The notes under the pieces are model-generated. The model made no database searches, was not told where the DNA came from, and saw only the letters and a program-made list of their open reading frames with translations. A stretch of 64,000 nucleotides of DNA from Centroscyllium fabricii. Lineage: Eukaryota. Positions 1,255-33,747 of this stretch are shown here, piece after piece (positions within the stretch are counted from its first letter, which is position 1; every line of letters starts with the position of its first letter). The stretch covers positions 59,892,001 through 59,956,000 of the forward strand of contig JBNRSN020000024.1 in NCBI GenBank assembly GCA_051313645.2, read 5' to 3'. The position numbers and the translations under genes were made by a program.

Positions 1255-4070
1255 AAGATGAAGATAGGAGCAGGAGTAGGCCATTCGGCCCTTCGAGCCC
1301 GCTCCGCCATTTAATGAGTTCATGGCTGATCTTTCAAGTTCAGTACCCTGTCCCCGCCTTCTCTCCGTAACCCTTAATCCCTTTAGCCTGAAGAAATGTA
1401 TCCAATTCCCTCTTAAATATATTTAATGAACTGGCCTCCACTGCCCTCTGTGGCAAGGAATTCCACAGGCTCACCACTCTCTGGGTGAAGAAATTCTTCC
1501 TCATATCTGTCCTAAATGGTTTACCCCTTATCCTTAGACTGTGGCCCCTGGTTCTGGACTCCCCCACCATTGGAAACATTCTTTCTGAATTTAACCTGTC
1601 CAGGCCTGTCAGAATTTTATATGTTTCTATGAGATCTCCTCTCAATCTTCTAAACTCCAGCGAGTACAAGCCCAAACTACACAATCTCTCCTCGTAGGTC
1701 ATTCCTGCCATTCCAGGTATCATCCTGGTGAATCGCCGCTGCACTCCTTCCATGGCAAGAACATCCTTCCTCAGATGAGGCGACCAAAACTGTACACAAT
1801 ACTCAAGGTGTGGTCTCACCAGTGCCTTGTACAGCTGTAGTAAGGTATCCTTATTCCTATACTCGAACCCTCTTGATATGAAGGCCAACATACCATTTGC
1901 CTTCTTAACCGCCTGTTGCACCTGCATGCTCGCCCTCAGTGACTGGTGCACAAGAACACCCAGGTCTCTCTGCACTTCCCCATCTCCCAATCTATTGCCA
2001 TTTAAATAATAATCTGCCCTCCTGTTTTTGCCCCCAAAGTGGATAACCTCACATTTATCCACATTATAGTGCATTTGCCATGTATCCGCCCATTCCCCCA
2101 ACTTGTCCAAATCGCACTGGAGCTTCCTGACATCCTCTTCAGAGCCCACCCCCCCTCCTAGTTTAGTGTTGTCTGCAAATTTGGAGATGTTGCATACAAT
2201 TCCCTGGTCCAGATCATTAATATATATTGTGAACAGCTGGGGTCCCAGGACAGATCCCTGCGGCACCCCACTAGTCACCACCTGCCACTCAGAAAACGAG
2301 CCGTTTATTCCAACTCTCTGTTTTTTATCAGCCAGCCAGTTCTCTATCCACGTCAGTACTTTGCCCCCAATCCCATGAGCCTTGATTTTGCATGCTAATC
2401 TTTTATGTGGGACCTTATCGAAGGCTTTCTGGAAGTCAAGGTACACCACATCTACTGGCTCTCCCCCATCTATTTTATCAGTTACTTCCTCAAAGAATTC
2501 CAATAGATTAGTCAAGCACGATTTACCTTTTGTAAATCCATGTTGACTCTGTCCGATCCCGTCCCTATTTGTCAAGTGCTCCGCTATTACATCCTTAATA
2601 ATGGACTCTAGCATTTTGCCTACTACTGATGTAAGGCTTACTGGTCTATAATTCCCTGCTGATTCTCTACCCCCCTTTTTAAACAGTGGGGTAACATTTG
2701 CTACCCTCCAATCCATGGGTACTGTTCCCGAGTCTATCGAGCTCCTGAAAATGATCATTAAGGCATCTACTATCTCCAGGGCCACCTCCTTAAGTAGCCT
2801 AGGATGTAGATTATCAGGGCCTGGGGATTTGTCGGCCTTCAATCCCTTCAACTTCCCCAACACCATATCCTTAGAAATACTGATTTCTGTCAGATCCTCC
2901 CTTGCATTAGTCCCCATGTTTCCCGATATCCCAGGGAGGTTATTTGTGTCCTCCTTTGTGAAGACAGAACCAAAATATGAATTTAATTGGTCTGCCATTT
3001 CCTTATTCCCCATTATATATTCCCCTGAATTGGACCGCAACGGACCGACTTGGGATTTTACCAATCTTTTCCTCCTGATATACCTATAAAAGCCTTTGCA
3101 GTCGGTTTTTAATGTTTGCCACAAGCTTACTTTCGTAATCTATTTTCCCCCTCCTGATTAATCCCTTTGTCCTCCTTTGCTGTATCCTGAACTGCTCCCA
3201 ATCTTCAGGTCTGGTGCTTTTTTTGGCCAATTGATATGTATTTTTGGGGGATTTTATGTTATCCCTAATTTCCCTTGTTATCCACGGCTGAGTCACCTTT
3301 TTAGGTTTATTTTTATGCCAAACCGGTATAAACAAGTTCTGTAATTCTTCCATTTTATCTTTGAATGCTTGCCATTGTCTATCCACCATTAGTCCCCCCA
3401 TAAACTCCGCCCAATCAATCTTACTTAATTCCCTTCTCATACCATCATAATTCCCTTTATTTAAATTGAGGACCTTAGTCTCGGAGTCAATTTTTTCACT
3501 CTCCATCTCAAGTGAGAATTCGATCATATTATGATCGCTCCGACCCAAGGGGCCTCGTACAACAAGATTGCCAATTAGTCCCTTCTCATTGCACAATACC
3601 CAGTCTAAGATGGCCTGATCCCGAGTTGGTTCCTCGACACATTGGTCCAGGTAACCGTCCCGTAAACATTCTAGGAATTCCTCCTCCTCGGTATTTTTAC
3701 AAATTTGGCTAGTCCAATCTATATGTAAATTAAAGTCACCTATGATGACAGCGGTGCCCTTATTGCACGCTTCTCTAATTTCCCTTTTTATGCCTTCCCC
3801 CACCTCCATATTACTGTTTGGAGGCCTATATACCACTCCCACTAAAGTTTTCCGCCCCTTACTATTTCTCAGTTCTACCCATATAGATTCCGTATCATCC
3901 GAGTTAATATCCTTCCTTTCAATTGCGTTAATCCCTTCTTTCACCAGCAATGCTACCCCACCTCCCTTTCTTTTTTGCCGATCCTTCCTAAATATTGTAT
4001 ACCCCTGGATGTTAAGTTCCCAGCCTTGCACCCCCTGCAGCCATGTTTCTGTAATCCCAATCAAATCATA
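1255..4070 (-). mobile_element. CR1 LINE (HER1-like), 5'-truncated ORF2 (APE 3084-4064, RT 1340-3124), inserted in the gypsy 5' LTR
   Basis: GITETW/GDFN/SDH endonuclease motifs; RT motifs YRPVSLTS, LDFQKAFD, GVPQGSVLGP; FADD mutated to FADN; one frameshift near 3100; CR1 3' UTR and CTATG tail. Confidence 0.95.
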
Positions 4071-4263
4071 TTAACAGAGTTCTAACACCAGCCGGACATT
4101 CAACCATGGTGTTAGGCATCAATGTACTGTTAATGTATCTTTTGTATGTACGGGGCGTGTCCCCTTTAAGAGTGCGGGATGACAGCTTTGAGTAAAGACC
4201 TATTTTGAATCGCTCCTCTGTGTAGACTTCATTTCTTGGTTAGGAATCTGCCGATTTCTACAT

Positions 4264-4275
4264 TGGTGACCCCGA
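4264..4275 (+). promoter_or_regulatory. Primer-binding site complementary to the 3' end of tRNA-Trp
   Basis: TGGTGACCCCGA one base after the 5' LTR end (CA at 4261-4262). Confidence 0.85.
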
Positions 4276-4276
4276 G

Positions 4277-4919
4277 TTGGTGAATGTTTTCACCGACTAT
4301 TCCAAGAAGATGGTAGTAAATGCTGTGTCCCTGAAACTGCCGCAATTTTGGGAGCAGCAGGCGCCCACGTGGTTCGTGCAAGTCGAGGCCCAGTACGCCC
4401 TGCGAGACATCGTGGCGGATCAGACCAAATTTCTTTACGTGGTCTTCGCCCTCAACAGCCTCCCGGGTCATCAGATTCCTGGAAAGTCCCCCTGAGGATG
4501 GCAAGTATAAAGCTCTGAAAACACGATTACTCCTGGTCTTCGGCCTCTCCTAAGCTGAGCGTGCCCGTTGACTGCTCTCGATGCCCGGCCTCGGGGGCTC
4601 CAAGCCCTTGGAGTTAATGAACCAAATGCTTACGCTCCTGGGCTCCGAACCAGAATGCTTTCTGTTCCGAGAATTATTCCTTAGCCAGCTACCCGAACAG
4701 GTGCAAGCTGCCCTGGCTGGCTCCTCGATCACCGACTGCGCCGACCTCACGGCTGAGGCCAATAAAATTTTTGCGGTCACTCGACACTGCTGCACCGCCA
4801 TGAGGTACTCCACCCCCACGGACAACGCCCCCGCTCGTCAAGCTGCGGGCCTCTGCTTTTATCACGCGCAGTTCGGCGCGAAGGCGAGGCGCTGCCGCCC
4901 TCCCTGCACGTTCTCCTAA
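4277..4919 (+). pseudogene. gag, disrupted
   Basis: KLPQFW...PTWFVQVEAQY N-terminus and CHCC knuckle CFYHAQFGAKARRCRPPC; frameshifts and stops. Confidence 0.85.
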
Positions 4920-4929
4920 AAAAAAAAAC

Positions 4930-7830
4930 GCTCAACTGACGCCACGGCCATAGCAGACTGGATTTAGCAAGCCACCCACAACAGCAGGAAAGCTACTTTT
5001 TATAACAGACTCCCTTTCGGGCTGACGGTGTCTGTGCGACACCGGTGCGCAGTGCAGCATTCTGCCCGCGTCCGCCCTCGATGTCCAGGCTGGGCACCGC
5101 GGAGCCACCCTCGAAGCGGCCAATGGCAGTACGATCCAGACCTTTGGCAGGCGGCGATTTGAAGTGTGTTTCGATGGCCAGCGCTTCCACTGAGATTTCG
5201 TCACGGCTAAGGTCTCCCAGCCCCTCCTCGGTGCAGATTTTCTATGCGCCAACAGCCGACTGGTTGACGTCCGGAATCGGTGGTTGATCAACGTGGCAAC
5301 ATTTAATTCACTACTGCGTTACCGTAGTAACACGACGGCACGCATGGTCTCCTGTGCGTTTCCAACTCCCGACGAATTTGCTCGCTTCCTGGGTGAATTC
5401 CCCGGCCTTACACAGCTCACCTTCCTCTCCTCATCCGCCAAACATGGAGTGGAGCACGACATCTCCACCAACGGCCCCCGGTCTACGCGCAGGCTCGGCA
5501 CCTCGAACCCGGCAAGATGGCGGTCACGAAGGCGGAGTTTGCAACGATGGAGCAGCTGGGGATTATTCGCCGGTCGAATAGTCCCTGGTCCTCGCCGCTC
5601 CACATCGTCCCGAAACCTGGCGGCAGCTGGTGGCCCTGTGGCAACTACCATCGTCTGAACGATGCCACCACACCGGATCGTTACCCGATCCCCCATATCC
5701 AGGATTTCTCTGTCCATTTGGCAGGTAATACCATCTTTTCCAAGGTCGACCTCGTCTGGGGCTACCACCAGGTTCCAGTGCACCCACAAGATGTCCAGAA
5801 GACTGCAGTCATCACCCTGTTCGGCCTCTTTGAGTTCCTTAGAATGCCGTTCGGCTTGAAGAATGCTGCCCAGGCTTTCCAGCGCCTGATGGACTCCGTG
5901 CTGCGGGACCTCAAGTTCCTCTTCGTCTATTTAGATGACATCCTAGTGGCCAGTCCGAACAAGGAAGAGCAGCTTAGTCACCTGTGCACCCTGTTTCAGC
6001 GCCTCAGCCAACATGGACTCATCATCAACTTAGCCAAGTGCCAGTTTGGCTTGAGCCAAATTGACTTCCTGGGGCATCGCATTACAGCAGAAAGAGCGGT
6101 GCCTTTACCAGCTAAAGTACAGGCGGTGACAGCCTTCCTACGCCCACAAAGCGTCAAGGCCATGCAGGAATTTCTGGGCATGGTGAATTTTTATCACCGG
6201 TTCGTTCCTAAGGCAGCACTTCTCATGCGGCCCCTGTATGAGGCACTCAAGGGCAAGACTGGTAACAACCCGGTCAACTGGATGGAGGAGATGAACCTAG
6301 CGTTTGATGAAACAAAACTCGCCTTGGCCAATGCTTACAGCATCTTTGACTGAGAATTGCTCGCCCTTTTCCTGGCTGTTCGACATTTTCGGTTTCTCTT
6401 GCAGGGTCATCCCTTTACAGCCTTTGTCGACCACAAACCACTCACTTTTGCTATGTCCAAGACTACCGAACCATGGTCAGCGCGCCAACAGCAACAGCTG
6501 ACTTACATTTCAGAGTTTACTACTGATATTCAGCACATGGCTGGTAAGGACAACCTGGTGGCAGACTGCCTCTCCCACGCAGCCATCCACACTGTACATT
6601 TGGGTATCGATTATGCCACTTACACCCTTCACGGTCCCAGAGCGTCGGTTCGACCATGTCCATGTGGATTTGGTAGGTCCTCTTCCGCCATCCCAGGGTT
6701 TCTCACATATCCTTACAATGGTCGACCGCACCACCAGATGGCCAAAGGCATTCCCACTTGCCTCCACCACTTCGGCAGACGTGGCCAGAGCTTTCATCTC
6801 CACGTGGGTCGCCCGTTTCGGGGTTCCATCTGACATCTCCTCGGACAGAGGCCCACAGTTCACTTCAGAGCTCTGGAACGCGGTGGTCCAGGGGCTCAGC
6901 TCCAAACTACACTGAACCACAGCCTACCACCCGCAAGCAAACGGCTGTGGTAAACCACTCTTTATGTATATATCTGTATATTACTGTAACCTACTGTAAC
7001 CACCCTTAAACCATGTTGTATTATAGTTCTTTGTGTGTGATCACCTGGACATGCCTATGCTGGCCCCACCTGTGACTCCTCCCTCCCAGGACCAGGTACA
7101 TAAGTGGCCGTCTCCCTTCCCCCGGCCATTCCTGGGGACGGTCGACTAGCTGGTGCATGTCCACCTTTAGCTAATAAAAGCCGATTGTTTCACCTCTTAA
7201 TATCTCGTCTCCGAGGTCGTTAATTTGGTAACAACGGCTTCTGTGAGTGGTTCCATCGATCAATGAAGGCCACGCTGAGGGCCAGTCTCCAGGACGCAGG
7301 TTGGGTGGACAAGCTGCCGTGGGTCCTGTTAGGTCTTCGCACAGCCTCTAAGGAGGATCTTCACTCTTCCTCAGCAGAATTGGTGTACAGCCAGCCACTG
7401 AGAGTGCCGGGTGAATTTATACCAACCACTACCGAGCCGTGGTCCAATTCTGCTCAGCTAGCCCAACATCAGGAGGCTGCCAGATGTTTTCGTCCAGTTC
7501 CTACCTCACATCACGGGCTTCAGCGCTCCCACATCTCCAAGGAGCTTCACGACGCTGAATACGTCTCCATTCGGTATGATGCCCACAGGGATCCTCTCAA
7601 GGCCCCATATACCGGCCCTTTCCACGTGTTGGAGACGGGTAACAAATCCTTCACTATCGATGTTGGAGGCAAAGCTGACCACATCTGTCGACCGCCTCAA
7701 GCCGGCTCATCTGGACTCTGACTCCCCTATTCAGACAGCGCAGCCGCTGAGGCGAGGTAGACCATCTGTCGTCGTGCCTACCGACCCGCCACAACCGCCC
7801 GCCAGCCACACCGCAGCCGTCGCCTTCTGA
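4930..7830 (+). pseudogene. pol (protease-RT-RNase H-integrase), disrupted
   Basis: DTGA at 5038-5049; RT with YLDD (5517-6353); RNase H remnant DHKPL...N.VAD.LS; integrase HVDLVGPLP...SDRGPQF...YHPQANG; internal deletions near 6335 and 6620. Confidence 0.9.
6946..7233 (+). mobile_element. Solo LTR of an unrelated LTR element, nested in the gypsy integrase
   Basis: TGT...ACA termini, 5-bp TSD ACGGC (6941-6945 and 7234-7238), AATAAA near 7173; integrase frame resumes after it. Confidence 0.88.
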
Positions 7831-11367: not shown

Positions 11368-13676
11368 TCGTGGGGATAAAATTAGTTTGCAGCCTGTGGA
11401 CCAATCCTGCCCGCTGGAAAATATTTCCCCTATCTTTTACCACCAGTTGATTGGGAGAGGGTTTCCTCTGTGCATTATGTGGAACCAACTGTTTATAAAG
11501 AACAAGTTTATGATTTTGCACATCGTGCACACTGTAATGTTTCCTCTATATGGTAACTGCAAACAGTTTAATGCAACATCAATTAATGTTTCATTAAAGT
11601 TTAAAATATTTTGCTAGGTGTTATTTTCAAAAATATCAATATTCAAGCAAAAGTATCACTGTGTCAACAGGAGTATTTTACATTTTTACCTACAAAAATA
11701 CAGTGGTTCATTTATTAAAGATTGATATTGTTCTTCATTCCAAACTGCTCTAAGAAACCTCCTTGTACATGAGGAGTGCTATAGAAATGTCAAATATTTC
11801 CGACAATTTGGTTTTATCTGCAGCTGCCTCATGAATGTAAATGTTACATTTCTGCTTAGTTGGGCTGACTGTGAAGTACAAGGACACTGTGCCTTGGCCG
11901 CATATCCACTGGGGATGAGTTTATGATTACAAGCTCGCTTGGGACTTTTATTAAAGAAAAGACTTTCAACCAATCTGTTTGGTCCAGATACAAAGCGAGG
12001 TCCCAGAGGGAAAGGGTCGATGTCACCCACTCCCTAAATAGGGGCAAGTCCTGGCTGATTGATGGGGTCAAGGATGCTCCTCTCCATATTAAACTTGACT
12101 TTACTGCAGAGGGAAGGCTCCAACTTGCCACTTGCTGGAGCAGTGGGAACTGTATCACTACAATCAAAGGTGGAGGCTTGTGAACAGAACAAAGTTGACG
12201 AAAAAAGCAACACTGCAGAGGAGAAAAAGAAAATCAGCACAACTTGCAAATGATTCAGTGAGCAAGCTACGAACACTAAAGTTTGGTACTTAAAGGGTTA
12301 CGGTTGGGTTTCCAATTTAGGGCACATTGGCTGCACGTCGTGATGTATTTTTCACCAGAGAAATTCTACATTTAAACAACTTCATTTCCAAGTGCAGCAC
12401 TAATTAGCTGCAGAATTAGTGAAGCTGAGTACCCCCATAGATCGAAAAAACCTCGAGGGAGGCTCCTGGATAGAGAATGTTGCATTTCCAATTATTTTGT
12501 TGAATTGCTAATTCAGTTATTGCACCAAGTGTAATTGTGATGGGTATTGGTGTGCAATTCAATTTGTTTTAAATATTTGTGGGACAGTCTGATTGGTAAT
12601 GACTCCGACCTATCCTCGTGGCCTAGATGAAGAATCAGACAACACAAACCGCTAAGACTCAATTTAATTTTTTTTTATTTTGATCTTTTCAATACTCTTG
12701 AGATCGAAGAAGTTACAAAGCCTTAAATTAGAAAACGTTACTACAATACTTTGATCCTCAGCTTTGCAAGAGCACAAGATTTTTTTTTACACTGTAATGC
12801 AACTAATTTCCAGGTTTCGCTCCCCCCTTCCCCGTCCAGTACCTTGGTGGTTTATCAATCTCCTGTCAAAGTTTAGAGTTGATCTGAAACCCAATTTTAC
12901 CCTCTCCTCCTTTCCTGCAGGTGCTGACTTTTATTAGGGTACAGTCCATGGTCACTGACACCTCACCCAAGTGGCTATTCACTCGAGACATTGACTGTCC
13001 ACCAGAATCATTGGAAAGCAAGCCAAAGTGGAACTGGGACCCCTGGCTAATTTCCCCTTCATAGCACAGAGACCAAGAATAGTGCCAACTAGAGCCCAGA
13101 CCAGTGTGCATTTTAGCTACTGAGTTACATAGCTTATCTCTGCTTCCATCAGTATCTCAATACTGTTTCTATTAAACCACATGGTGTATTATCTCAGTTA
13201 TTCTGTGTTGTTGTGACAGGATGTGCCAGCATTTCCATTGGGAAACAAGTCACACTGACCCTCAGTACAGATGTGTGTGTGGGCTTTTGTTTCTTTGCTT
13301 TTGCCATAAAGGAGAACAGCACTGGACTGTGCACGGCTTTCTGCTTCACAAACCGAGAAAGGCACGGACAGCCTCTCCTTCCATGCAATAGATGTTGGAT
13401 TGCACGTCAGCTGTGCATTGGCCTCCAGTTATTCTATAACCCATGGCCGACTTAGTGAGATGAAGTTCATGTTGCTCACAGAAAAACTCCTGCCATCCTG
13501 TCTGCTTTTGCTTCCAGATGCAGGTCTACATTTGAATTCACTGTATTCCATACCCTCCCACGGAGTGTGCAGAATTTGAACAGGACTACACCCGAACTCA
13601 GTCGACGGTAGTAGTTGTGAATGAGCCCACAGCACAAACCATGCCTCTCTCCCAGCTGGAACAGGAGCTGAGAGCG

Positions 13677-14050
13677 AGGGAAGATAGAGGTGCACAAGAT
13701 TATGACGGGTGTGGATAGGCTAGACGGGGAAAGGCTGTTCCCACTAGTTGATGGTACAAGGACTCGGGGACACAGATTTAAGGTTTTGGGCAAGAGATGC
13801 GGGGGGGGGGGGGGAACGTGAGGAAAAACTTTTTTACGCAGCGAGCGGTGATGACCTGGAATTTGCTGCTGGTGGAAGCGGAGACACTCGATGTTTTCAA
13901 GGGGAGACTGGATAGGCACTTGAGGGAAATAAACTTGCTGGGCTACAGGGATAGAGCGGGGGAATGGGACTGACTGGATTGCTCTGGAGAGCCGGCATGG
14001 ACTCGATGGGCCGAATGGCCTCCTTCTGTGCCGTTATGACTCTTGACTCT
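13677..14050 (+). mobile_element. CR1 3' fragment (different subfamily)
   Basis: Degenerate KIMTGVDRLDGERLFP...TRGHRFKV reading and GGGCCGAATGGCCTCCTTCTG 3' end. Confidence 0.85.
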
Positions 14051-15580
14051 GACAAGACATTGAATCGTGCCCAGCACAGAAGGAGGCCCTTTAGCCCATC
14101 ATGGTGGCTCTTTGAAAGAGCACATGAAGTAGGTTGGGTGAAGACTTGGGAGTTTTTCTGGAAAACATTTTTTTAAAAATTCATGCCCAACAGTTAGCCT
14201 CACTGCTTTCATGTGTAAAAAAATTACTTTAAAAAAAAAAGTATGGAATAAATAAAGTCAATTTTATTGTTCCAGTCACAGGATTGCATCTCAGAATTCT
14301 TTGGCTGAAAAATGTTGACCCACTGCTTCAACACAACAAATCACTTCCTTTGCCACTAATACATTTCATCACTTGTTCAACAGCCGGCGTGACTCCTCTC
14401 TCCTTCGTTTATGTGGGGCGGGTGCAATTCCTTTTGAGGAAAAATGACGGCTTTTCTCTACTTAATAAAATCTCAGCCGCACACAAGTTTGAAATGTGCA
14501 ATATCTCTGAGAATGCCATTTGTTGGCGGGGCCCGAATGCCACAGACCGTCCCATTTTATGTTGACAGGAATTTCACCCCTGAATTGCTCACCTCAAACC
14601 TTTCATCTGTTCTCACCATTCAAGAGAAACTCCAGGACAGTCGTAACGCTCATCATGAAAGAGCTTTGCTACACAGGTTAAAAATATAAACATTATTCCC
14701 TAGAAAAATAATGAATCAGAAGTACAAATGAAGCAGAGTAACAGGACTGTGATATTTAGAATTTATACCATGAGACCCAGAACATGATTTGCCGCCCACA
14801 TTTTATAGGTGAATTCTAGACTTGCACTAATCACACAGTAAAACTCTGGGGCCAACGCCTACAGTGACTGAAGAGTTTCAGACCTGTTTGGATACCGTAT
14901 AGTTTCCCACAGTCACACCATGGCACCTATTGTCCAGGATGGTTTATCACAGTTGAGGCTACGAGTGAAACTCCACATACCACAGCTCCCTAACAAACTG
15001 TTTATTAGGCACAATCGCCGGCTTACCAGGGCCACCACTGTGGAAGATCATGACAGGCAAGGAGAGGGCATTTTAATTGTGTTTTCTGCTCAAGGGCAGC
15101 GACTCCAATTGCATCCCAAATGACACCTCCAACTAATTCGATCACTCCAATAACTGCTCTCTCTCTGGCTCTCTCTCTGTCTGCCTTTTTCTCCCACAGT
15201 GTCTCCTGCACTAAGACCGGGGAATCCTATTTCGACCACATGAATCCTGGGGAGGTGACATCCCTATGCAGCAACCCCTGCTGGCGGGGAGGAGCAATGG
15301 GCCTCAGGAAGCGTTGATAACGGTTAATAAAAATAAAGCACCAAAAGCAAATATTACAAACTGCACCTCCATCAACAATACATGTGGCATTTAAAAATAT
15401 ATATAAACCTAACGACAAGTTAATCAGTGTGGGGCCATTCAGTGCACAGGGTACTCTGCTTCTGCGTCTGGGTTCTAATACATTAAAAAAATGTAATAAA
15501 TCATTTACAAAGCCCAATCAAAAATCCTTGGGTACTACTGCAAATAAAAGAGCTCTGTAAAATAGGTAATTAGTTATGAA

Positions 15581-15803
15581 ACAACAACAGAAAATGATGG
15601 AAAAACTTAGCAGGCCAGGCAACATCCGTGAAGAGAGAAATATAGAGTCGACGTTTCAGGTCGGGACCCCTTGTCTTGACCAAGGGTCCGGACCCGAAAC
15701 ATTGACTCTTTCTCTCTTCACGGATGTTGCTCGGGCCTGCTGAGTTTTTCCAGCATTTTCTGTTGTTATTTCTGATTTCCAGCATCTGCAGTATTTTGCC
15801 ATC
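15581..15803. mobile_element. Fold-back Penelope-like non-autonomous element with degenerate hammerhead cores
   Basis: Inverted arms of about 95 bp; GGGTC-CG-GACCC-GAAAC hairpin; 14-bp TSD TAATTAGTTATGAA (15567-15580 and 15804-15817). Confidence 0.75.
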
Positions 15804-15889
15804 TAATTAGTTATGAAGCTGCCTAGAATTGAATAAATGCAAGAAGTCACACAACACCAGGTTATATAGTCCAACAGTTTTATTTTAAA

Positions 15890-15927
15890 TCACAAGCTTT
15901 CGGAGCTTTTGCCCCTTCGTCAGGTGA
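15890..15927 (-). ncRNA. Minimal type I hammerhead ribozyme motif, same sense as ACACA
   Basis: UCAC-CUGACGA-A-GGGGC(AAAA)GCUCC-GAAA-GC-UU^GUGA. Confidence 0.65.
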
Positions 15928-16024
15928 AAGAGAGAGACTGACTTAAAGAACGCACATATGGGATGAAGGGAGAAATCCGATATCCCTTTGTCCCATATGT
16001 GCGTTCTTTAAGTCAGTCTCTCTT

Positions 16025-16062
16025 TCGCCTGAGGAAGGAGCAGAAGCTCCGAAAGCTTGTGA
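16025..16062 (+). ncRNA. Minimal type I hammerhead ribozyme motif
   Basis: UCGC-CUGAGGA-A-GGAGC(AGAA)GCUCC-GAAA-GC-UU^GUGA: stem I, catalytic core, stem II, palindromic AGCU stem III. Confidence 0.65.
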
Positions 16063-18609
16063 TTTAAAATAAAACTGTTGGACTATAATCTGGTGTTGTG
16101 TGACTTCTTGCATTTGTCCACCCCAGTCCAACACCTCCTCATCATAGAATTGAATAGTTGCTGTTTGCAGTTAAGATGATCAGACCGCGTTCAACAAGTG
16201 TCAAAAGAAATGGCACCTGGGAACATTTTTCAGTATTCTGGGCTCATCCGACTCGTTTCCAATACTGGGGAAGATTCGCTCTGAACACCAGGTGCAGCGA
16301 AATTGTAAACCCATCCTTTACAAATATATTTCTGATTTTGCTCCAATTGCTGCTCAGAGAAGACGTCAACCCAGTGTGCAAAAACATCAAAGTACCAAAT
16401 GCCAGCAGGCAGTCGTGAAACAGAGAACAGCACAGCTTCTTTTAGCTGCCTAAATAGGATGGTTGAAAAAAAGAGAGCCTGAAAAAAACAATTAGCGAAA
16501 GACAGAAATTATACCCTTCTGTCTGAACTGCCATCTTATTTTGTGCTAAGGCTCCAAATCTTTTGAGGCTCCCGAAATCTGAATATTCACTTTGTTTAGT
16601 GAAGGTATGAATCCCTCTGCTTTGTCCCCCGCTTCTCTGATCTCCCTAGTGTCTCACAGCTCCCTACAGTTGACCTGCACTTCCGTACTGCTCTGAACCG
16701 AGAGATAAGGAGCTGCACATGAAGACGAGTAATGACTCTTCGCTTTCCCTCTCGCCATCCTCTCTGAGCGGAGAGATCAAGGAGCTGCTCGCAGGTGGCC
16801 AGCCACGAGGCTCCTGCTTTTCTCTCTCTCCCTTATGTGGACGGAGCAGGTCAGGTGAGATCAGGAAATTGGGGGCACTGAACCTGGATGCTCTCCACTG
16901 CTACATCGCGGCCACTAAAGTTTGGCTCGCCTTCAATAGTTTGCGGCAGAAACAGAACTAGTTTGCGCAGTTGCACAAATTTTAAACGCAGCCAAGTAAA
17001 AAGGGGGAAAACTTAACTAATTGCTGGCCAATCTTTAGCAAGTCATTAACTGACTGCCCCGCCCAACATTCCTCTGAAACCTGCTCACAGGCCCTGGTTA
17101 TAGCTTATACAGCAGATCAAAATGCGAGCTCTTCCAGATCAAATTGTTTAGAGATGTTACACGTTGCAACTAAATATTTAGACTCTTACTAAATGTACAT
17201 TATTGCTTCCCCAAAGCTACACATTGCCCAGCTACTGAGGAATTTACTGTGGTGGAAAGTCCCTTATCTTAACATATGGACTAATGGTGAAATTCATTTA
17301 AAGCCACAAATTCTTGGTGCACTGTTCCTTTTAAGTCCTTTGGGATAACACAGAGGAAAGGGTTAAACTCCACATCACATCACTTCAGTTTATTAATGCT
17401 GAAGTGAATAACATTTCTTCTGGCGATTTAAGCATTGCTCCTCATATCTTCACCCTTGTGCATTCAAACCGCAGACACTTCCTTCCGCACCAGGGCCAAG
17501 GAGAAAATGCTGACACTTTTCTTTCACAGATTCCTCCTGACATTTCATTACTGCTATTATTCTCAGTTTGCTTGTTGGGTTTGGCAATTACCAGGCTTAT
17601 GGTAAAATATGGAAATTGTAATTTTCCCAGACTGCGAATCAGATTAAAATAGCCGGTGCCGATAATGGCCACGAGCTCCTCCTCCCTCCCCCTAAAACTG
17701 GTCCATCTGCACCAACCTCATTAGGATCCAGCTGTCAATCAGCCAGCCAACTGCACCATGAAAAGTCAAATTGTAACATAGTTGGGAACAAACTCTATCT
17801 GATGGCTTTGATTTTAATAGAAGAATCTCAAATACTCACATCTTCACCTGCTGGCATACATGCCTTTGAGGTTCATTAATGAAGAGTATGGGGCTCAACA
17901 TAACAGGCAGCCTTTTCACACCGTCATAATTCGCCCCTTCTGTCCCTGCATTTTTGCAGAACTCTGCCCAGAGACTTTGTCAATGGCAAGTTGGGGGGGC
18001 TTGGTGCAACCTCCACTTGGCTGTTTAACTGTTCTTTTAAGTCAGCTCCTGTTTAATTTTTTTTATTAATAAACTACAGCAGCAGTTCAGGTAGCTGCTT
18101 ATACAAAGTGTTAAATATTTCCACAAACCATTAGCATTCTACATCGATTGCAGAGTTAACTAGCACTGCCATCCACAATGTACTTACATGCCCTCCATGA
18201 GGTATGCTAACCGACAATTTATGCCTGCAAAAGAACCAAGGACTGTAGTGTACAGATTTGATTGCTGGCAGTTTGATAGAGACTTTATGAACCAGCAAAA
18301 AAACAAGCACTGTATCTTTACGGCATATTCAGTACCTTTCACAAGGACACGAGAGTTCAGAGTACAATTCAGTGCCAGGAATACATACATTTATATCACA
18401 TCACGATCTACATCTGGTTAAATTAAATTCCTCCTTATCTTATGTCTCGGGTGCAAATTATGAATTGTTAAAATTCCAACTGTGGGCCAGTGTCCATATT
18501 TCTGTGCTTGGGTTTCTGCACTCCATCATTCCTAATATCCTCGTCAGTGTGGCTGTTGTGATAGAACAGGCAGAGCTAGTGCCCCAGTCAGCTCACTGCA
18601 GACTCCAGT

Positions 18610-18736
18610 CTATGTTGAAGCAGGGGCATCCATTGTTGACAGAATGCGCACAATTTCAGCTCTCTGAGTGGGTGAGATGTGTTGGGTCATGTGAACAATC
18701 GAATCCATGGCAACTTCAGGATTGGCCTGCACCAGA
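18610..18736 (-). CDS. ACACA: ACACA last coding exon ([42 protein letters not shown])
   Basis: Translated by hand; nearly identical to the ACC1 C-terminus as I recall it; ttgcag|T acceptor; TAG at 18612-18610. Confidence 0.93.
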
Positions 18737-19807: not shown

Positions 19808-21002
19808 TAACTCTGTGCTCTTCTTCACACAGTGCCATGAGATCTCTTACATCTACTCAAACAAGCAGGCAGAGTCTCGGTTTAATGTTTCATCGGAACG
19901 ACAGCACCTCTGACAAAGCAGCACTCCCCCAGTACTACATTGAAGTCTCAGTCGAGATCAGGGGTTCCCAAACCGTGGCACGTGCACCCCTGGGGGTACG
20001 TAAGACATCTCTGGGGGGGGGGGGTTATGCGGAGAAACTGTCTAACGGTGGATTTTAAGTTGTATCTATTATAATTTGTACAATGCTTTGGCGTTAAAGA
20101 TTTAATCTATTAACCCTGTCTGCAGGGAGGGTTACACAGGCAGTTGGTAGATCTGGAAGGAGGTACGCAATAAGTAACCTCTGATCTCGATTATCTGCTA
20201 GGGTGGCGGCAAGTGGTGATCAGCGGGAGCTTTCCTTGGCCTTGATCGACCTGAAGCCATGAGACTTCTACGGGTTGGGATGGGGAAGAGAAAAAAGTAA
20301 TTAGGCAGCGTTTCCACTCCTCGTGATTGACCAACCTCCTGGCAGGGCGCATTTTGATTTACTCGTTCATGGGGCGTGGGCATCGCTGGCATTTAATGCC
20401 CATCGCTAATTGCCCTGGAGAAGGTGGTGGTGAGCCGCCTTCTTGAACTGCTGCAGTCCTTGTGGTGAAGTTGCTCCCACAGTGCTGACTTTGTCATTAA
20501 AACCTAGCTGGTTCAATAACGTCCTTTAGGGAACAAAACCACTACGACAAATGGTAGTTTCATGGTCACCATTACTGATGCTAGCTTTTTAAATTCCAAA
20601 TGTACTTTGATGAACTCCATTTAAATTGCCCCAGCTGCCTTGGTGGGATTTGAACTCCCGTCTCTGGATTACTAGTCCAGTAAAATAACCAGGATGCTAC
20701 CGTACCCCTACGGGTGCACTTGCGTGGATGTTGGGTGAGAAAGGGATGGGGTGCAGCTGTGTTGCAGCGGACCCCCCCCCACTCTCCCCTAACCCTGGTG
20801 TTGAGTAATCTGCTGACACTTACCATCCAGACTCGCACATTGAACAGTGGCTATTTGGGAGAGGTAGCAGAGGGTGTCTGGCACCCATGGAACTGTACCC
20901 CAGTGAGGAGTCAATGCCTTCAGGCCAGGACACAGAGAAAGCAATCGGCAGAGAAAAAAAACTGGACAGATCCAGATGTTTTTTTATTTGTTTAAAAAAA
21001 AA

Positions 21003-21127
21003 GACAATTGTAAGAAGTCACACAACACCAGGTTATAGTTCAACAGTTTTATTTGAAATCACAAGCTGATGTTGTGTGACTTCTTACAATTGTCCACCCC
21101 AGTCCAACACCGGCACCTCCACATCAT
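21003..21127. mobile_element. Internally deleted copy of the 15836 fold-back family
   Basis: Same arms (AAGAAGTCACACAACACCAGG...TGTTGTGTGACTTCTT) and GTCCACCCCAGTCCAACACC tail; flanked by the direct repeat A(n)GACAA. Confidence 0.75.
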
Positions 21128-22374
21128 AAAAAAAAGACAAATAGTGAACTTATACAAAGTGCATTAGATGACGGAGGGGCTATATCTCCAGAAAGATCTA
21201 CCAGCCAAGGACTACATTGCAGAAGGTGTTTCTTGGAGTTCAAGTCTGCAATTTCTGATTACAAAATGGATTTTTTAAATAGCTCCATCAGTGTAAGAAT
21301 ATCTTCAGATTGTTGGACAGCATTTAAAATTGGTCTGAGTCAAGTCAGTCTGCTTACTGCACCTGCCTGCACAGAACCCGTCAGCTGTGCATGTAGCCAT
21401 ATATGTGTGATAGTTAATACACACATGCACAGCCTAACTGAAAATTAATACCTTGCTGTGCGAGGCCCTGGGGAAAGAAAAAATATGCAAATCGCAGGGC
21501 CTTCCGAGACTCACTTGGAGACGTGCTGGATAAATCGCTTAGTTTGGGGAAACAGTTGATGGACAGTGTGTTTATCTTTGGACTGGCTGCACAGGGCTCC
21601 TGCCGAATGCACATTTTGTAGCACACAAAATGCTGAACATATTACAGCTTGTACAAGGGAAAGTCAGGAAAAGCACACAAGCTGGATTCCACTTGTTTAT
21701 GCAGATACGAGGATGTAGAGGTCCCACGTATATATAGAGTTGTTGGAGCTGAGGGGGGAGGGGAAGACATGCCCTTCTCATCCTCACCCCTTTAGCTCGA
21801 TAGCTGCACCATTGGCTGCTGTCAGGTATCAAGTACATCTCAGAAATGCATTAACTGTACAACAGCAAACAAAGCCCTACAGCCCCAGACTCCATGGCTC
21901 TGCTGCCAGGATTTGGCTGATTTGCCTCCTCCTCATTTATCTTTGTTCCCCTCACACCACACTGTTCCCCACTGGAAAGAGTGGATTGACAACCAACTCC
22001 TAGGCCTCTGCCATTGCTGCTCGAGAACCAGCCGAGGGAAGCGAGAGAGTTTGGTTTACGCACGAAGGAGAAGTGAAGAATTGATCATTTCCCAATTCGC
22101 CCGTCCTCCCCCCGCCAAAAAAAACTAGTGGACCTCCTGTGGCATTGCCCATGCCGAGTTGGCGAATATAGTAAACGTTTGGGAAAGGTGTAGAGAGACA
22201 GCAGATAGCAGCAAAGTGCTTTTAGATTGGCTCAAAATTTCTCGGAACCAATCAAAGCACAGAATTTTTTTCTGGTACCTGTACTAATTTCTTTTGTGCT
22301 ACTTATTACTATTTAAAGTGTGATGTGCACTCTACACAAGGCTTTCAATATATTTATTAGAGATTTATAAACTG

Positions 22375-32477: not shown

Positions 32478-32600
32478 CTGATGAAAGGTTGTTGACCTGA
32501 AACAACTATACTTTCTCTCTCGCTCTCCACATTTGATGCCGGACCTGCTGAATGTTTCCCAGCATTTTCTGCTTTTATTTCAGGATTTCCAGCACCTGTC
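32478..32600 (+). mobile_element. Penelope-like terminal fragment with hammerhead-like core
   Basis: CTGATGA-A-AGGTT(GTT)GACCT-GAAAC followed by CCAGCATTTTCTG...ATTTCCAGCA as in 15581-15803; a degenerate relative lies at about 26600-26750. Confidence 0.55.
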
Positions 32601-32934: not shown

Positions 32935-33747
32935 GGGGGGGGGGGGGGGATTTTCATGCCCCCGTGAGGCGGGGTTTTCGGCGGAACCGGCAGATCCTGT
33001 CCCTCCCCGCCGCTTTCTCATTTTTGATCGCCCAGATTCCCCGCCCCGAAACATTCCCGCCGCTGGCCGGCGGGGATGGATTGTCGCCTCGTTAAGGGCC
33101 CTTAATTGGCATCTTTAATGCCATTTTAAGGGCCCTCAGCCATTTTGCCCTGTTTTCCGCCCTAACCCCGTCACTTTAAACCCTGCTGGGTGAAACCCAG
33201 CGGGAGCACAGCGCTGGTTATTACTGTTGGACTATAACCTGGTGTTGTGTGACTTCTTGCATTTATAACTTTCTACTTCAAGGTGTGAAGGACATGCTGC
33301 CAAATGCTTGGCATGTCTCCAGCACCTTAGAGGAGTAGGTTACTCTGTTCTGGCTGCAGCAGCAGCTTTGAGCAGAATCTGAGCGATCTCAGTTCTGCAC
33401 AGCTCCTGACAGCCGCTGCGAGTTGTGAGGGATTCTGAGCCTGCCCGCCCACCTGTCAGTCACCAGCACTTGGCCTGTCCCATTGGCTGCACTCCACTGT
33501 GATGTCACAGTGGAGTGTTTCCATGGGAACTGACAACAACCAGTGCTGGAACTGTCAATCAAACTGCTCGTAGCCCTGCTGCAGCCTGACTCGATTGACC
33601 TAATTACCTCCCGCTGCCGCCGACGGGGATTTAACAACCTAATTAAAGTAAAATTGCGTGGCCTTCCCAGCTGTTTGGGCGGGCGGGGCCGGAGGCGGCC
33701 CAGACCAATCCCCGCCAGGTTACCGCCCTTCCGGCAAAATCCCCCCC
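32935..33747. mobile_element. Harbinger-like TIR element, inverted relative to the 61712 copy
   Basis: G(n)ATTTT / AAAATCCCCCC termini; shared interior AAGGGCCCTTAATTGG and CACTGTGATGTCACAGTG. Confidence 0.55.

Follow-up and report, generated by a model that had tools for sequence, protein, structure and literature searches.

What are the two fold-back sequences that lie next to each other downstream of the ACACA coding sequence in Centroscyllium fabricii, and how were they made? The question arises from a 64,000-nucleotide stretch of contig JBNRSN020000024.1 (positions 59,892,001 to 59,956,000; hereafter the window), in which the two sequences are designated element 1 and element 2. The original prediction regarded them as small non-autonomous Penelope-type retroelements bearing hammerhead ribozymes, which could place a self-cleavage site, a switch or a double-stranded RNA (dsRNA) hairpin in the ACACA mRNA. 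The present analysis makes it probable that they are two 5′-truncated head-to-head insertions of abundant Neptune-type families of Penelope-like elements (PLEs), likely passive, probably located in the ACACA 3′ untranslated region (UTR), and likely built by priming from both cut strands of the target.

The two insertions and their parent families

Both elements are inverted repeats in which one arm is about 30–35 nt longer at its outer end. The two hairpins, their exact 14-bp and 12-bp target site duplications (TSDs) and the 6-bp spacer were confirmed as described, with the following features.

15567–15580: left TSD of element 1, 14 bp, TAATTAGTTATGAA; single copy at the empty site
15581–15803: element 1, 223 bp
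15581–15675, minus strand (element sense on the minus strand): tail-less arm of element 1; hammerhead core cut by the junction, AAGACAA...GAAA-CG-UC
15676–15803, plus strand: tail-bearing arm of element 1; tail of about 33 nt at 15770–15803
15676–15703, plus strand: core of the element 1 tail arm, U3-type; A8 changed to C, stem III CG changed to CA
15804–15817: right TSD of element 1, TAATTAGTTATGAA; 100% identity to the left copy
15818–15823: host spacer GCTGCC, 6 bp, between the TSDs of element 1 and element 2
15824–15835: left TSD of element 2, 12 bp (the family mode), TAGAATTGAATA
15836–16144: element 2, 309 bp
15836–15984, minus strand: tail-less arm of element 2; sense in the direction of the ACACA mRNA
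15890–15927, minus strand: minimal type I hammerhead in the tail-less arm of element 2, UCAC-CUGACGA-A-GGGGC/GCUCC-GAAA-GC-UU-GUGA; predicted cut after CUU, between 15894 and 15893
15983–16144, plus strand: tail-bearing arm of element 2; tail at 16115–16144, ending where the start codon of the parent open reading frame (ORF) lies
16025–16062, plus strand: minimal type I hammerhead in the tail arm of element 2, antisense to the ACACA mRNA; stem I UCGC/GUGA
16145–16156: right TSD of element 2, TAGAATTGAATA; exact copy

The families to which these elements belong, termed family 1 and family 2 respectively, are as abundant as had been suggested. In the 7.2-Gb genome, exact matches to the family 2 motif number 51,037 for a 35-mer and 163,417 for a 26-mer with one degenerate base, and those to the family 1 motif number 14,598 (controls 0 for both families); these counts represent arms and not insertions, and the families hold tens to hundreds of thousands of copies. 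Tracing the arms upstream leads into the 3′ UTR and ORF of coding PLEs, and the genome search for an autonomous partner encoding a reverse transcriptase (RT) and a GIY-YIG endonuclease, proposed at the outset, found one for each family. The Penelope-type origin is borne out by these parents, which carry the same pseudo-long terminal repeats (pLTRs) as the insertions. The family 2 parent is an 836-amino-acid frame between pLTR matches, with RVT_1 (E 3e-9) and C-terminal CCHH/GIY-YIG-type motifs; a Pfam search of its endonuclease piece gave no match, and GIY-YIG is read there as motifs only. The family 1 parent is a 577-amino-acid RT–linker–GIY-YIG frame followed by a pLTR 86% like the element 1 arm, and its RVT_1 and GIY-YIG Pfam matches are weak, lying below the curated cut-offs. 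The two parents are 33% identical. In family 2, partial tandems of the form pLTR–ORF–pLTR were found at L183 and L191, the latter being near-full with a tail that ends at the ATG of the ORF. A 759-amino-acid frame at L241 was rejected as a parent, as it joins part of a PLE to a CR1-type insertion.

Read in the translations, the CCHH motif with two cysteines between GIY and YIG is VVYLIRCRKGCPGAWYIGE in family 2 and LVYCIRCSRCGLLYIGE in family 1; this arrangement is the definition of endonuclease-bearing (EN+) PLEs (PMC8557442). The linker preceding the endonuclease, CHSNLCKTC in family 2 and CKRRRCNTC in family 1, fits CX2-5CxxC and takes the form CX4CxxC in both, and CX2-5CxxC is described as a feature of Neptune that also occurs in Nematis (PMC8557442). 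With a parent ORF, the CCHH motif and the combination of inverted pLTR, tail and TSD all found, both families appear from their sequences to be EN+ PLEs; the linker points to Neptune or Nematis, and the families are called Neptune-like here.

Formation of head-to-head insertions

An unbiased family 2 sample was taken as the first 100 matches on contig C1, which left 84 loci after removal of duplicates (L081, L089, L103, L104 and L107 were dropped). A head-to-head pair of arms is present in 51 of the 84 and a single arm in 33. The 45 pairs that passed a TSD and tail filter span 138–1220 bp, with differing junctions and TSDs of 10–20 bp; the modal length of 12 bp accounts for 23 of the 45, and 37 have TSDs of 12–14 bp. 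Most two-armed copies have an exact TSD of at least 10 bp, as against only 8 of the 33 single-armed loci within the fetched stretch, and the latter may represent longer inserts or a different route of resolution. Junctions differ among the 45 unbiased and 21 top family 2 copies, and among 30 top matches of family 1 (by eye). As neither arm length nor junction is constant between copies, the fold-back is not the replicating unit and is remade at each insertion. The idea of small non-autonomous retroelements that replicate as such is not supported, and the arms, moreover, continue into the 3′ UTR and ORF of a parent. A MITE-like (miniature inverted-repeat transposable element) or SINE-like (short interspersed element) fold-back family was also considered and rejected, as the copies do not share an internal junction.

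The geometry of the arms is informative as to how they were primed. Their outer ends fall into two clusters separated by about 35 nt, Q83–88 (36 of 45) and Q120–125 (38 of 45). As for their reach in the 5′ direction, after L153 was dropped, 13 of 44 pairs have a tail-less arm that is the longer by more than 20 nt and 11 have a tail arm that is, and in the remaining 20 the two lie within 20 nt of each other; shuffling gave near-equal arms in a mean of 6.7 and a maximum of 16 pairs (10,000 shuffles). In 4 of 76 insertions (L078, L086, L158 and L196), a tail-only arm faces a non-overlapping inverted arm, with perfect TSDs. The target flanks, compared at 37 sites with an exact 12-bp TSD, are roughly palindromic, CTGTC-N12-GACAG (C at −1 in 25, G at −3 in 22, G at +13 in 21 and A at +16 in 18), and the 37 TSDs themselves are AT-rich (72% AT).

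The two arms are usually of one source variant, with 1.46 diagnostic differences between arms within insertions and 5.67 between insertions. At least three diagnostic columns differ in 12 of 57 pairs, a count that leaves out the misaligned L159 and L014 and pairs with fewer than 60 shared columns. In the cleanest discordant case, L007, each arm is identical to arms of other insertions, and the mutual difference is 6/102; the arms of element 2 show 5/106 differences to each other, and 1 and 2 to arms elsewhere. Among long pairs, 8 of 10 are mutual best matches, and in the other 2 one arm is more similar to a different insertion (97.2% versus 94.4%). With regard to the ribozyme, 88 of 100 arms continue past the predicted cut by at least 5 nt on its 5′ side, and no arm has its start exactly at the cut; many upstream starts are subfamily breakpoints relative to one reference, and only the extension past the cut is read from them. 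Hammerhead cleavage was rejected as the source of the stub 5′ ends, with 2 of 100 alignment starts within Q27–33 and none at the cut.

Taken together, the arm reach, the tail-only arms, the symmetric targets and the two-variant pairs favor priming from both target strands. We lean towards reading the inverted-plus-tail structure as the footprint of a symmetric (dimeric) RT–endonuclease that uses two fixed start sites on the RNA to prime from both target strands, with roughly a tenth to a fifth of events copying two RNAs and element 2 being such a chimera. In the proposed sequence of events, the RT–GIY-YIG protein would cut both strands of a roughly symmetric site, about 12 bp apart, and one target 3′ end would start a complementary DNA (cDNA) at the outer start site of the RNA, i.e., the tail end at the ORF start, while the other would start a cDNA about 35 nt further in. 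Both cDNAs would end prematurely, in most cases on one RNA or source variant and often near the same point, sometimes on different RNAs; joining head to head and filling in would then yield the TSD, the inverted repeat and the one-sided tail. The hammerhead would be copied merely as part of the parent pLTR, from uncleaved templates, and in the mRNA both elements are predicted to fold into long hairpins that would trap the ribozyme.

Several points weigh against this scheme. The arm geometry was measured in family 2 only, and in 20 unbiased sites the right-side symmetry of the target is weak (G at +13 in 8 of 20, p 0.06), the left being strong. One of the 12 discordant pairs, L161, is an alignment artefact, and the diagnostic differences are columns and not events. 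The 20 of 44 pairs that are near-perfect palindromes, as is L185 with 2.5-kb arms of 99.1% identity, are equally explained by snap-back; moreover, asymmetric deletion at palindrome centers could leave arms of unequal length, and discordant arms could come from ectopic gene conversion among more than 100,000 copies. A rival account is built from these processes, in which the inverted arm arises by self-priming (snap-back) of one strand and later central deletions and gene conversion produce the unequal or discordant arms. Besides the near-equal reach of those 20 pairs, it can draw on the small palindromes at many junctions, on the usual identity of source variant between arms and on the self-priming argued for rotifer PLEs (PMC3846280). 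However, it does not readily accommodate a tail-less arm that is the longer one in 13 of 44 pairs (the excess reaching 336 nt in the unbiased set and 2050 nt among long copies), the four tail-only arms, which stop no more than about 20 nt from the second start site, or the two-variant arms of L007, L010, L114, L168 and element 2. Snap-back with later deletion and gene conversion is a rather unlikely rival, at its strongest for the symmetric half of the pairs.

Attraction of family 2 to family 1 copies was examined and found no support, a family 1 match lying within 200 bp in only 1 of 75 insertions; chance together with a suitable target best accounts for the 6-bp spacing. The final five bases of the spacer GCTGCC match the left half-site CTG(T/C)C favored by family 2.

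Related copies reported elsewhere in the window were upheld in part. Those near 21003 and 26600 are two-armed, with 13-bp and 14-bp TSDs and no intact cores, and that at 32478 is a single old copy, but the one near 33224 proved to be only a 42-nt PLE stub within a different repeat. The first, at 20996–21138, is a tiny family 2 insertion in the last ACACA introns, without a hammerhead core, and of its two arms the tail-less one extends further 5′, by about 35 nt. The repeat at about 32943–33290 also occurs at L277, L290, L294 and L310; it is a separate repeat of at least 350 bp from a G run, which carries a fixed 42-nt family 2 stub and has spread together with it, and such cases make up 4 of 100 pattern matches.

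Hammerheads, hairpins and the ACACA mRNA

In both arms of element 2, the core, stems I and II and the palindromic stem III of a minimal type I hammerhead are present, and folding predicts that they are sequestered. The expectation of a complete hammerhead in each arm thus stands, but the stem I UCAC/GUGA attributed to both is found on the minus strand and is replaced by UCGC/GUGA on the plus strand. Element 1 in this copy falls short of a minimal type I hammerhead. Its cores are indeed degenerate, UUGACCA on the plus strand and AAGACAA, cut by the junction, on the minus strand; the family norm, however, is U3–A8, which occurs in 11 of 17 cores from unbiased family 1 loci (U–G in 3, C–G in 3) and in 16 of 31 cores among the top family 1 matches, where the junction often cuts the core. 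At the family 1 loci L201–L230, C3–G8, U3–G8 and U3–A8 cores occur side by side, some with C at position 4 (UCGAUAA), and their coexistence possibly marks a path of compensatory change. In family 2, U occupies position 17, giving a cut after CUU, in 132 of 134 arms, and the core positions are strongly conserved among arms, a conservation that reflects the parent element. The hammerhead scan suggested earlier, run with Rfam over the whole window at E ≤ 5, gave 14 matches and no hammerhead, at element 1, element 2 or elsewhere; the miRNA-like matches lie far below their gathering scores and reflect the hairpin.

The host gene provides two reference points on the minus strand.

18610–18736, minus strand: last coding exon of ACACA; stop TAG at 18612–18610; E 1.4e-17 to human ACC1 residues 2307–2345
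14263–14268, minus strand: candidate poly(A) signal AATAAA; organism B contig end at 14244

An exon further upstream in the gene matches Carboxyl_trans. The elements lie 2454–3043 nt past the stop codon, in agreement with the distance of about 2.5–3 kb first given. None of the runs on record for this species is listed as RNA. Contig sets from 4 of 14 listed runs, all four from related organisms and guessed to be RNA, were compared over the region 13000–18600. In organism B, X3 contig 22 covers 14244–15580 and 16145–18183 with GCTGCC between them, overlaps contig 23, which extends beyond 18600, and ends 19 nt past the AATAAA at 14268–14263. Contigs of organism B and of organism C (X7) join 15580 to 16145 with 564 nt skipped, the same empty site in both, each TSD being present once. 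In organism A, X1 contig 8 has 9713 nt, 7240 of them before position 18600, and its length would fit a spliced ACACA mRNA; its alignment stops exactly at 16145, which suggests that element 2 is absent there. Element 1 is shared by organism A, two further contigs of which (X1 contig 7 and X2 contig 12) cross from the flanking sequence into it and reach 15604 and 15636. On the evidence of these contigs, both elements likely lie in the ACACA 3′ UTR, as had been supposed, element 1 is the older insertion and neither element is needed in the relatives; element 2 was probably inserted later, adjoining element 1. It weighs against the 3′ UTR assignment that the contigs are strandless and from other species, and that the runs are only guessed to be RNA.

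Two observations concern the same stretch of the gene. In X7 contig 26 (organism C), position 17165 is followed directly by 14692, with about 2.47 kb, both insertion sites among them, left out, and depth halves across this stretch; on the minus strand of 14700–17160, a good acceptor-like pyrimidine tract with AG stands at 14701–14700, and the donor near 17162 is weak. The skip is either a 3′ UTR intron (likely an isoform subject to nonsense-mediated decay) or a heterozygous deletion. In addition, contigs of organisms A, B and C cover non-repeat sequence past the 14244 end, at 13007–14287, which suggests a longer ACACA isoform or a convergent transcript.

In RNA folding predictions, the element 2 hairpin has a minimum free energy of −215 kcal/mol, and forcing stems I and II costs 48 kcal/mol. 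The pairing probability of stem II inside the hairpin is about 5e-12, the same with 100-nt flanks; the isolated motif, in prediction, does fold. Stems of about 135 and 93 bp are predicted for the two elements in the mRNA sense, in keeping with the long dsRNA hairpin first proposed. Transcription in this direction yields the antisense arm before the hammerhead arm, which pairs with it on emerging, and the sole other intact core nearby is antisense. A single minimal hammerhead showed no cleavage in vitro (PMC4209133), and that of Anolis needed protein to cleave (PMC11167929). Given the folding penalty, the earlier synthesis of the antisense arm and the inactivity of a single minimal hammerhead in vitro, a self-cleavage site or ribozyme switch in the ACACA mRNA is very unlikely according to these models. 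The two separate insertions are real and were correctly spotted; with the ribozyme motifs predicted to be folded shut, the locus is mostly ordinary as a site.

Two functional readings may be weighed on this basis. The original one, in which small non-autonomous fold-back retroelements spread as units and bring a switchable self-cleavage site into the ACACA mRNA, is largely refuted and has very little probability left: the mRNA-sense arm of element 2, whose core and stems I and II are intact, and the strong conservation of core positions across the family speak for it, but that conservation reflects the parent, no junction is common to the copies, arm starts show no excess at the cut, the hammerhead fold carries the 48 kcal/mol penalty, and cleavage would depend on another sense copy or on assistance from protein (PMC4209133, PMC11167929), the other intact core being antisense. 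Alternatively, it might be as dsRNA, and not as ribozymes, that the hairpins act on the ACACA mRNA, through A-to-I editing, retention in the nucleus, decay or the production of small RNAs. The predicted stems and the occurrence of element 1 in transcript-like contigs of organism A are in favor of such an effect. Should the hairpins undergo editing or change the stability of the mRNA, they would resemble inverted Alu pairs, in a lipid-synthesis gene. We nevertheless hold an effect of this kind to be improbable, as both elements are absent in organisms B and C with the UTR otherwise collinear, and the arms of element 1 show drift, with about 10 substitutions and 2 indels. Furthermore, with one family motif per 44 kb, insertion into a UTR is unremarkable, and exon-overlapping retrozyme copies in Xenopus also lie in 3′ UTRs (10.64898/2026.07.22.740005). 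Passive insertions of parent PLEs remain the preferred reading of the locus.

Elsewhere in the window, frameshifted pieces of a Gypsy-type LTR retrotransposon lie at about 4240–7830 (gag, protease, RT and integrase motifs, by eye), adjoined by a CR1-type long interspersed element at 1343–4070.

Comparison with known systems

The layout, tail, TSDs and opposite-strand hammerheads are already in print, and the mechanism is the useful part. The insertion unit of EN+ PLEs has been described as a 5′-truncated copy with an adjacent inverted copy, a one-sided tail of 30–40 bp and a TSD (PMC8557442; PMC3846280 for Pen2a_Av). The present copies share the head-to-head arms, the tail of about 30–37 nt on one arm, a TSD of about 9–14 bp, the AT-rich target and a parent with RT and C-terminal GIY-YIG; they differ in being very short stubs in very high number, which makes arm geometry and source variants countable, and in the symmetric flank CTGTC-N12-GACAG, which was not seen in the available parts of PMC8557442 and PMC3846280. 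How PLEs form inverted repeats and tails has been called undefined (PMC8557442). Dual minimal hammerheads 100–700 bp apart on opposite strands were noted in 2014, and the U3–A8 core variant is known in Schistosoma PLEs (PMC4209133). CUGANGA, the extra base before stem II, the G–C at the base of stem II, the palindromic two-base stem III and the short stem I are common to PLE minimal hammerheads (PMC4209133) and those found here, whereas family 2 cuts after CUU and family 1 mixes C–G, U–G and U–A cores.

Non-LTR retrozymes are likewise non-coding and PLE-derived, with a type I hammerhead and an occasional 3′ UTR site, and the Xenopus copies in exons tend toward 3′ UTRs (10.64898/2026.07.22.740005). 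They are, however, head-to-tail tandem units, in contrast to the head-to-head one-off stubs described here (10.64898/2026.07.22.740005). Identity with retrozymes was rejected, since the insertions are head-to-head with two arms only and no head-to-tail units.

In L1 twin priming, the second target strand primes a second cDNA, which results in an inversion inside one TSD. There, the segments derive from non-overlapping parts of the RNA with priming by homology, whereas the arms here mostly overlap and begin at two fixed starts. No statement of twin priming for PLEs was found in the literature searched, subscription papers being outside its scope.

The locus itself matters little, consisting of two stubs of huge families, both stubs being absent from the same UTR in two relatives; what value it has comes from the evidence on mechanism and from the dated empty site. 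The copy set matters more, as it predicts two start sites on opposite strands, a 12-bp stagger in a symmetric site and occasional two-RNA insertions, all of which are testable in the existing in vitro system of PAc, a Poseidon element of Anolis (PMC11167929). In that system both target strands are cleaved and extended, two RT start sites flank the tail, the RNA template is uncleaved and a dimer is predicted (PMC11167929). The present copies agree with it in the two start sites that delimit the tail, the extension of both strands and the uncleaved template. PAc differs in clade, in its tail position, which lies 111+ nt into the ORF and not at the start codon, and, in the available parts of the study, in start sites that are not tied to the two arms of an inverted insertion (PMC11167929). 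Twin priming, as we infer it from the copies, would join these in vitro results to a genomic structure.

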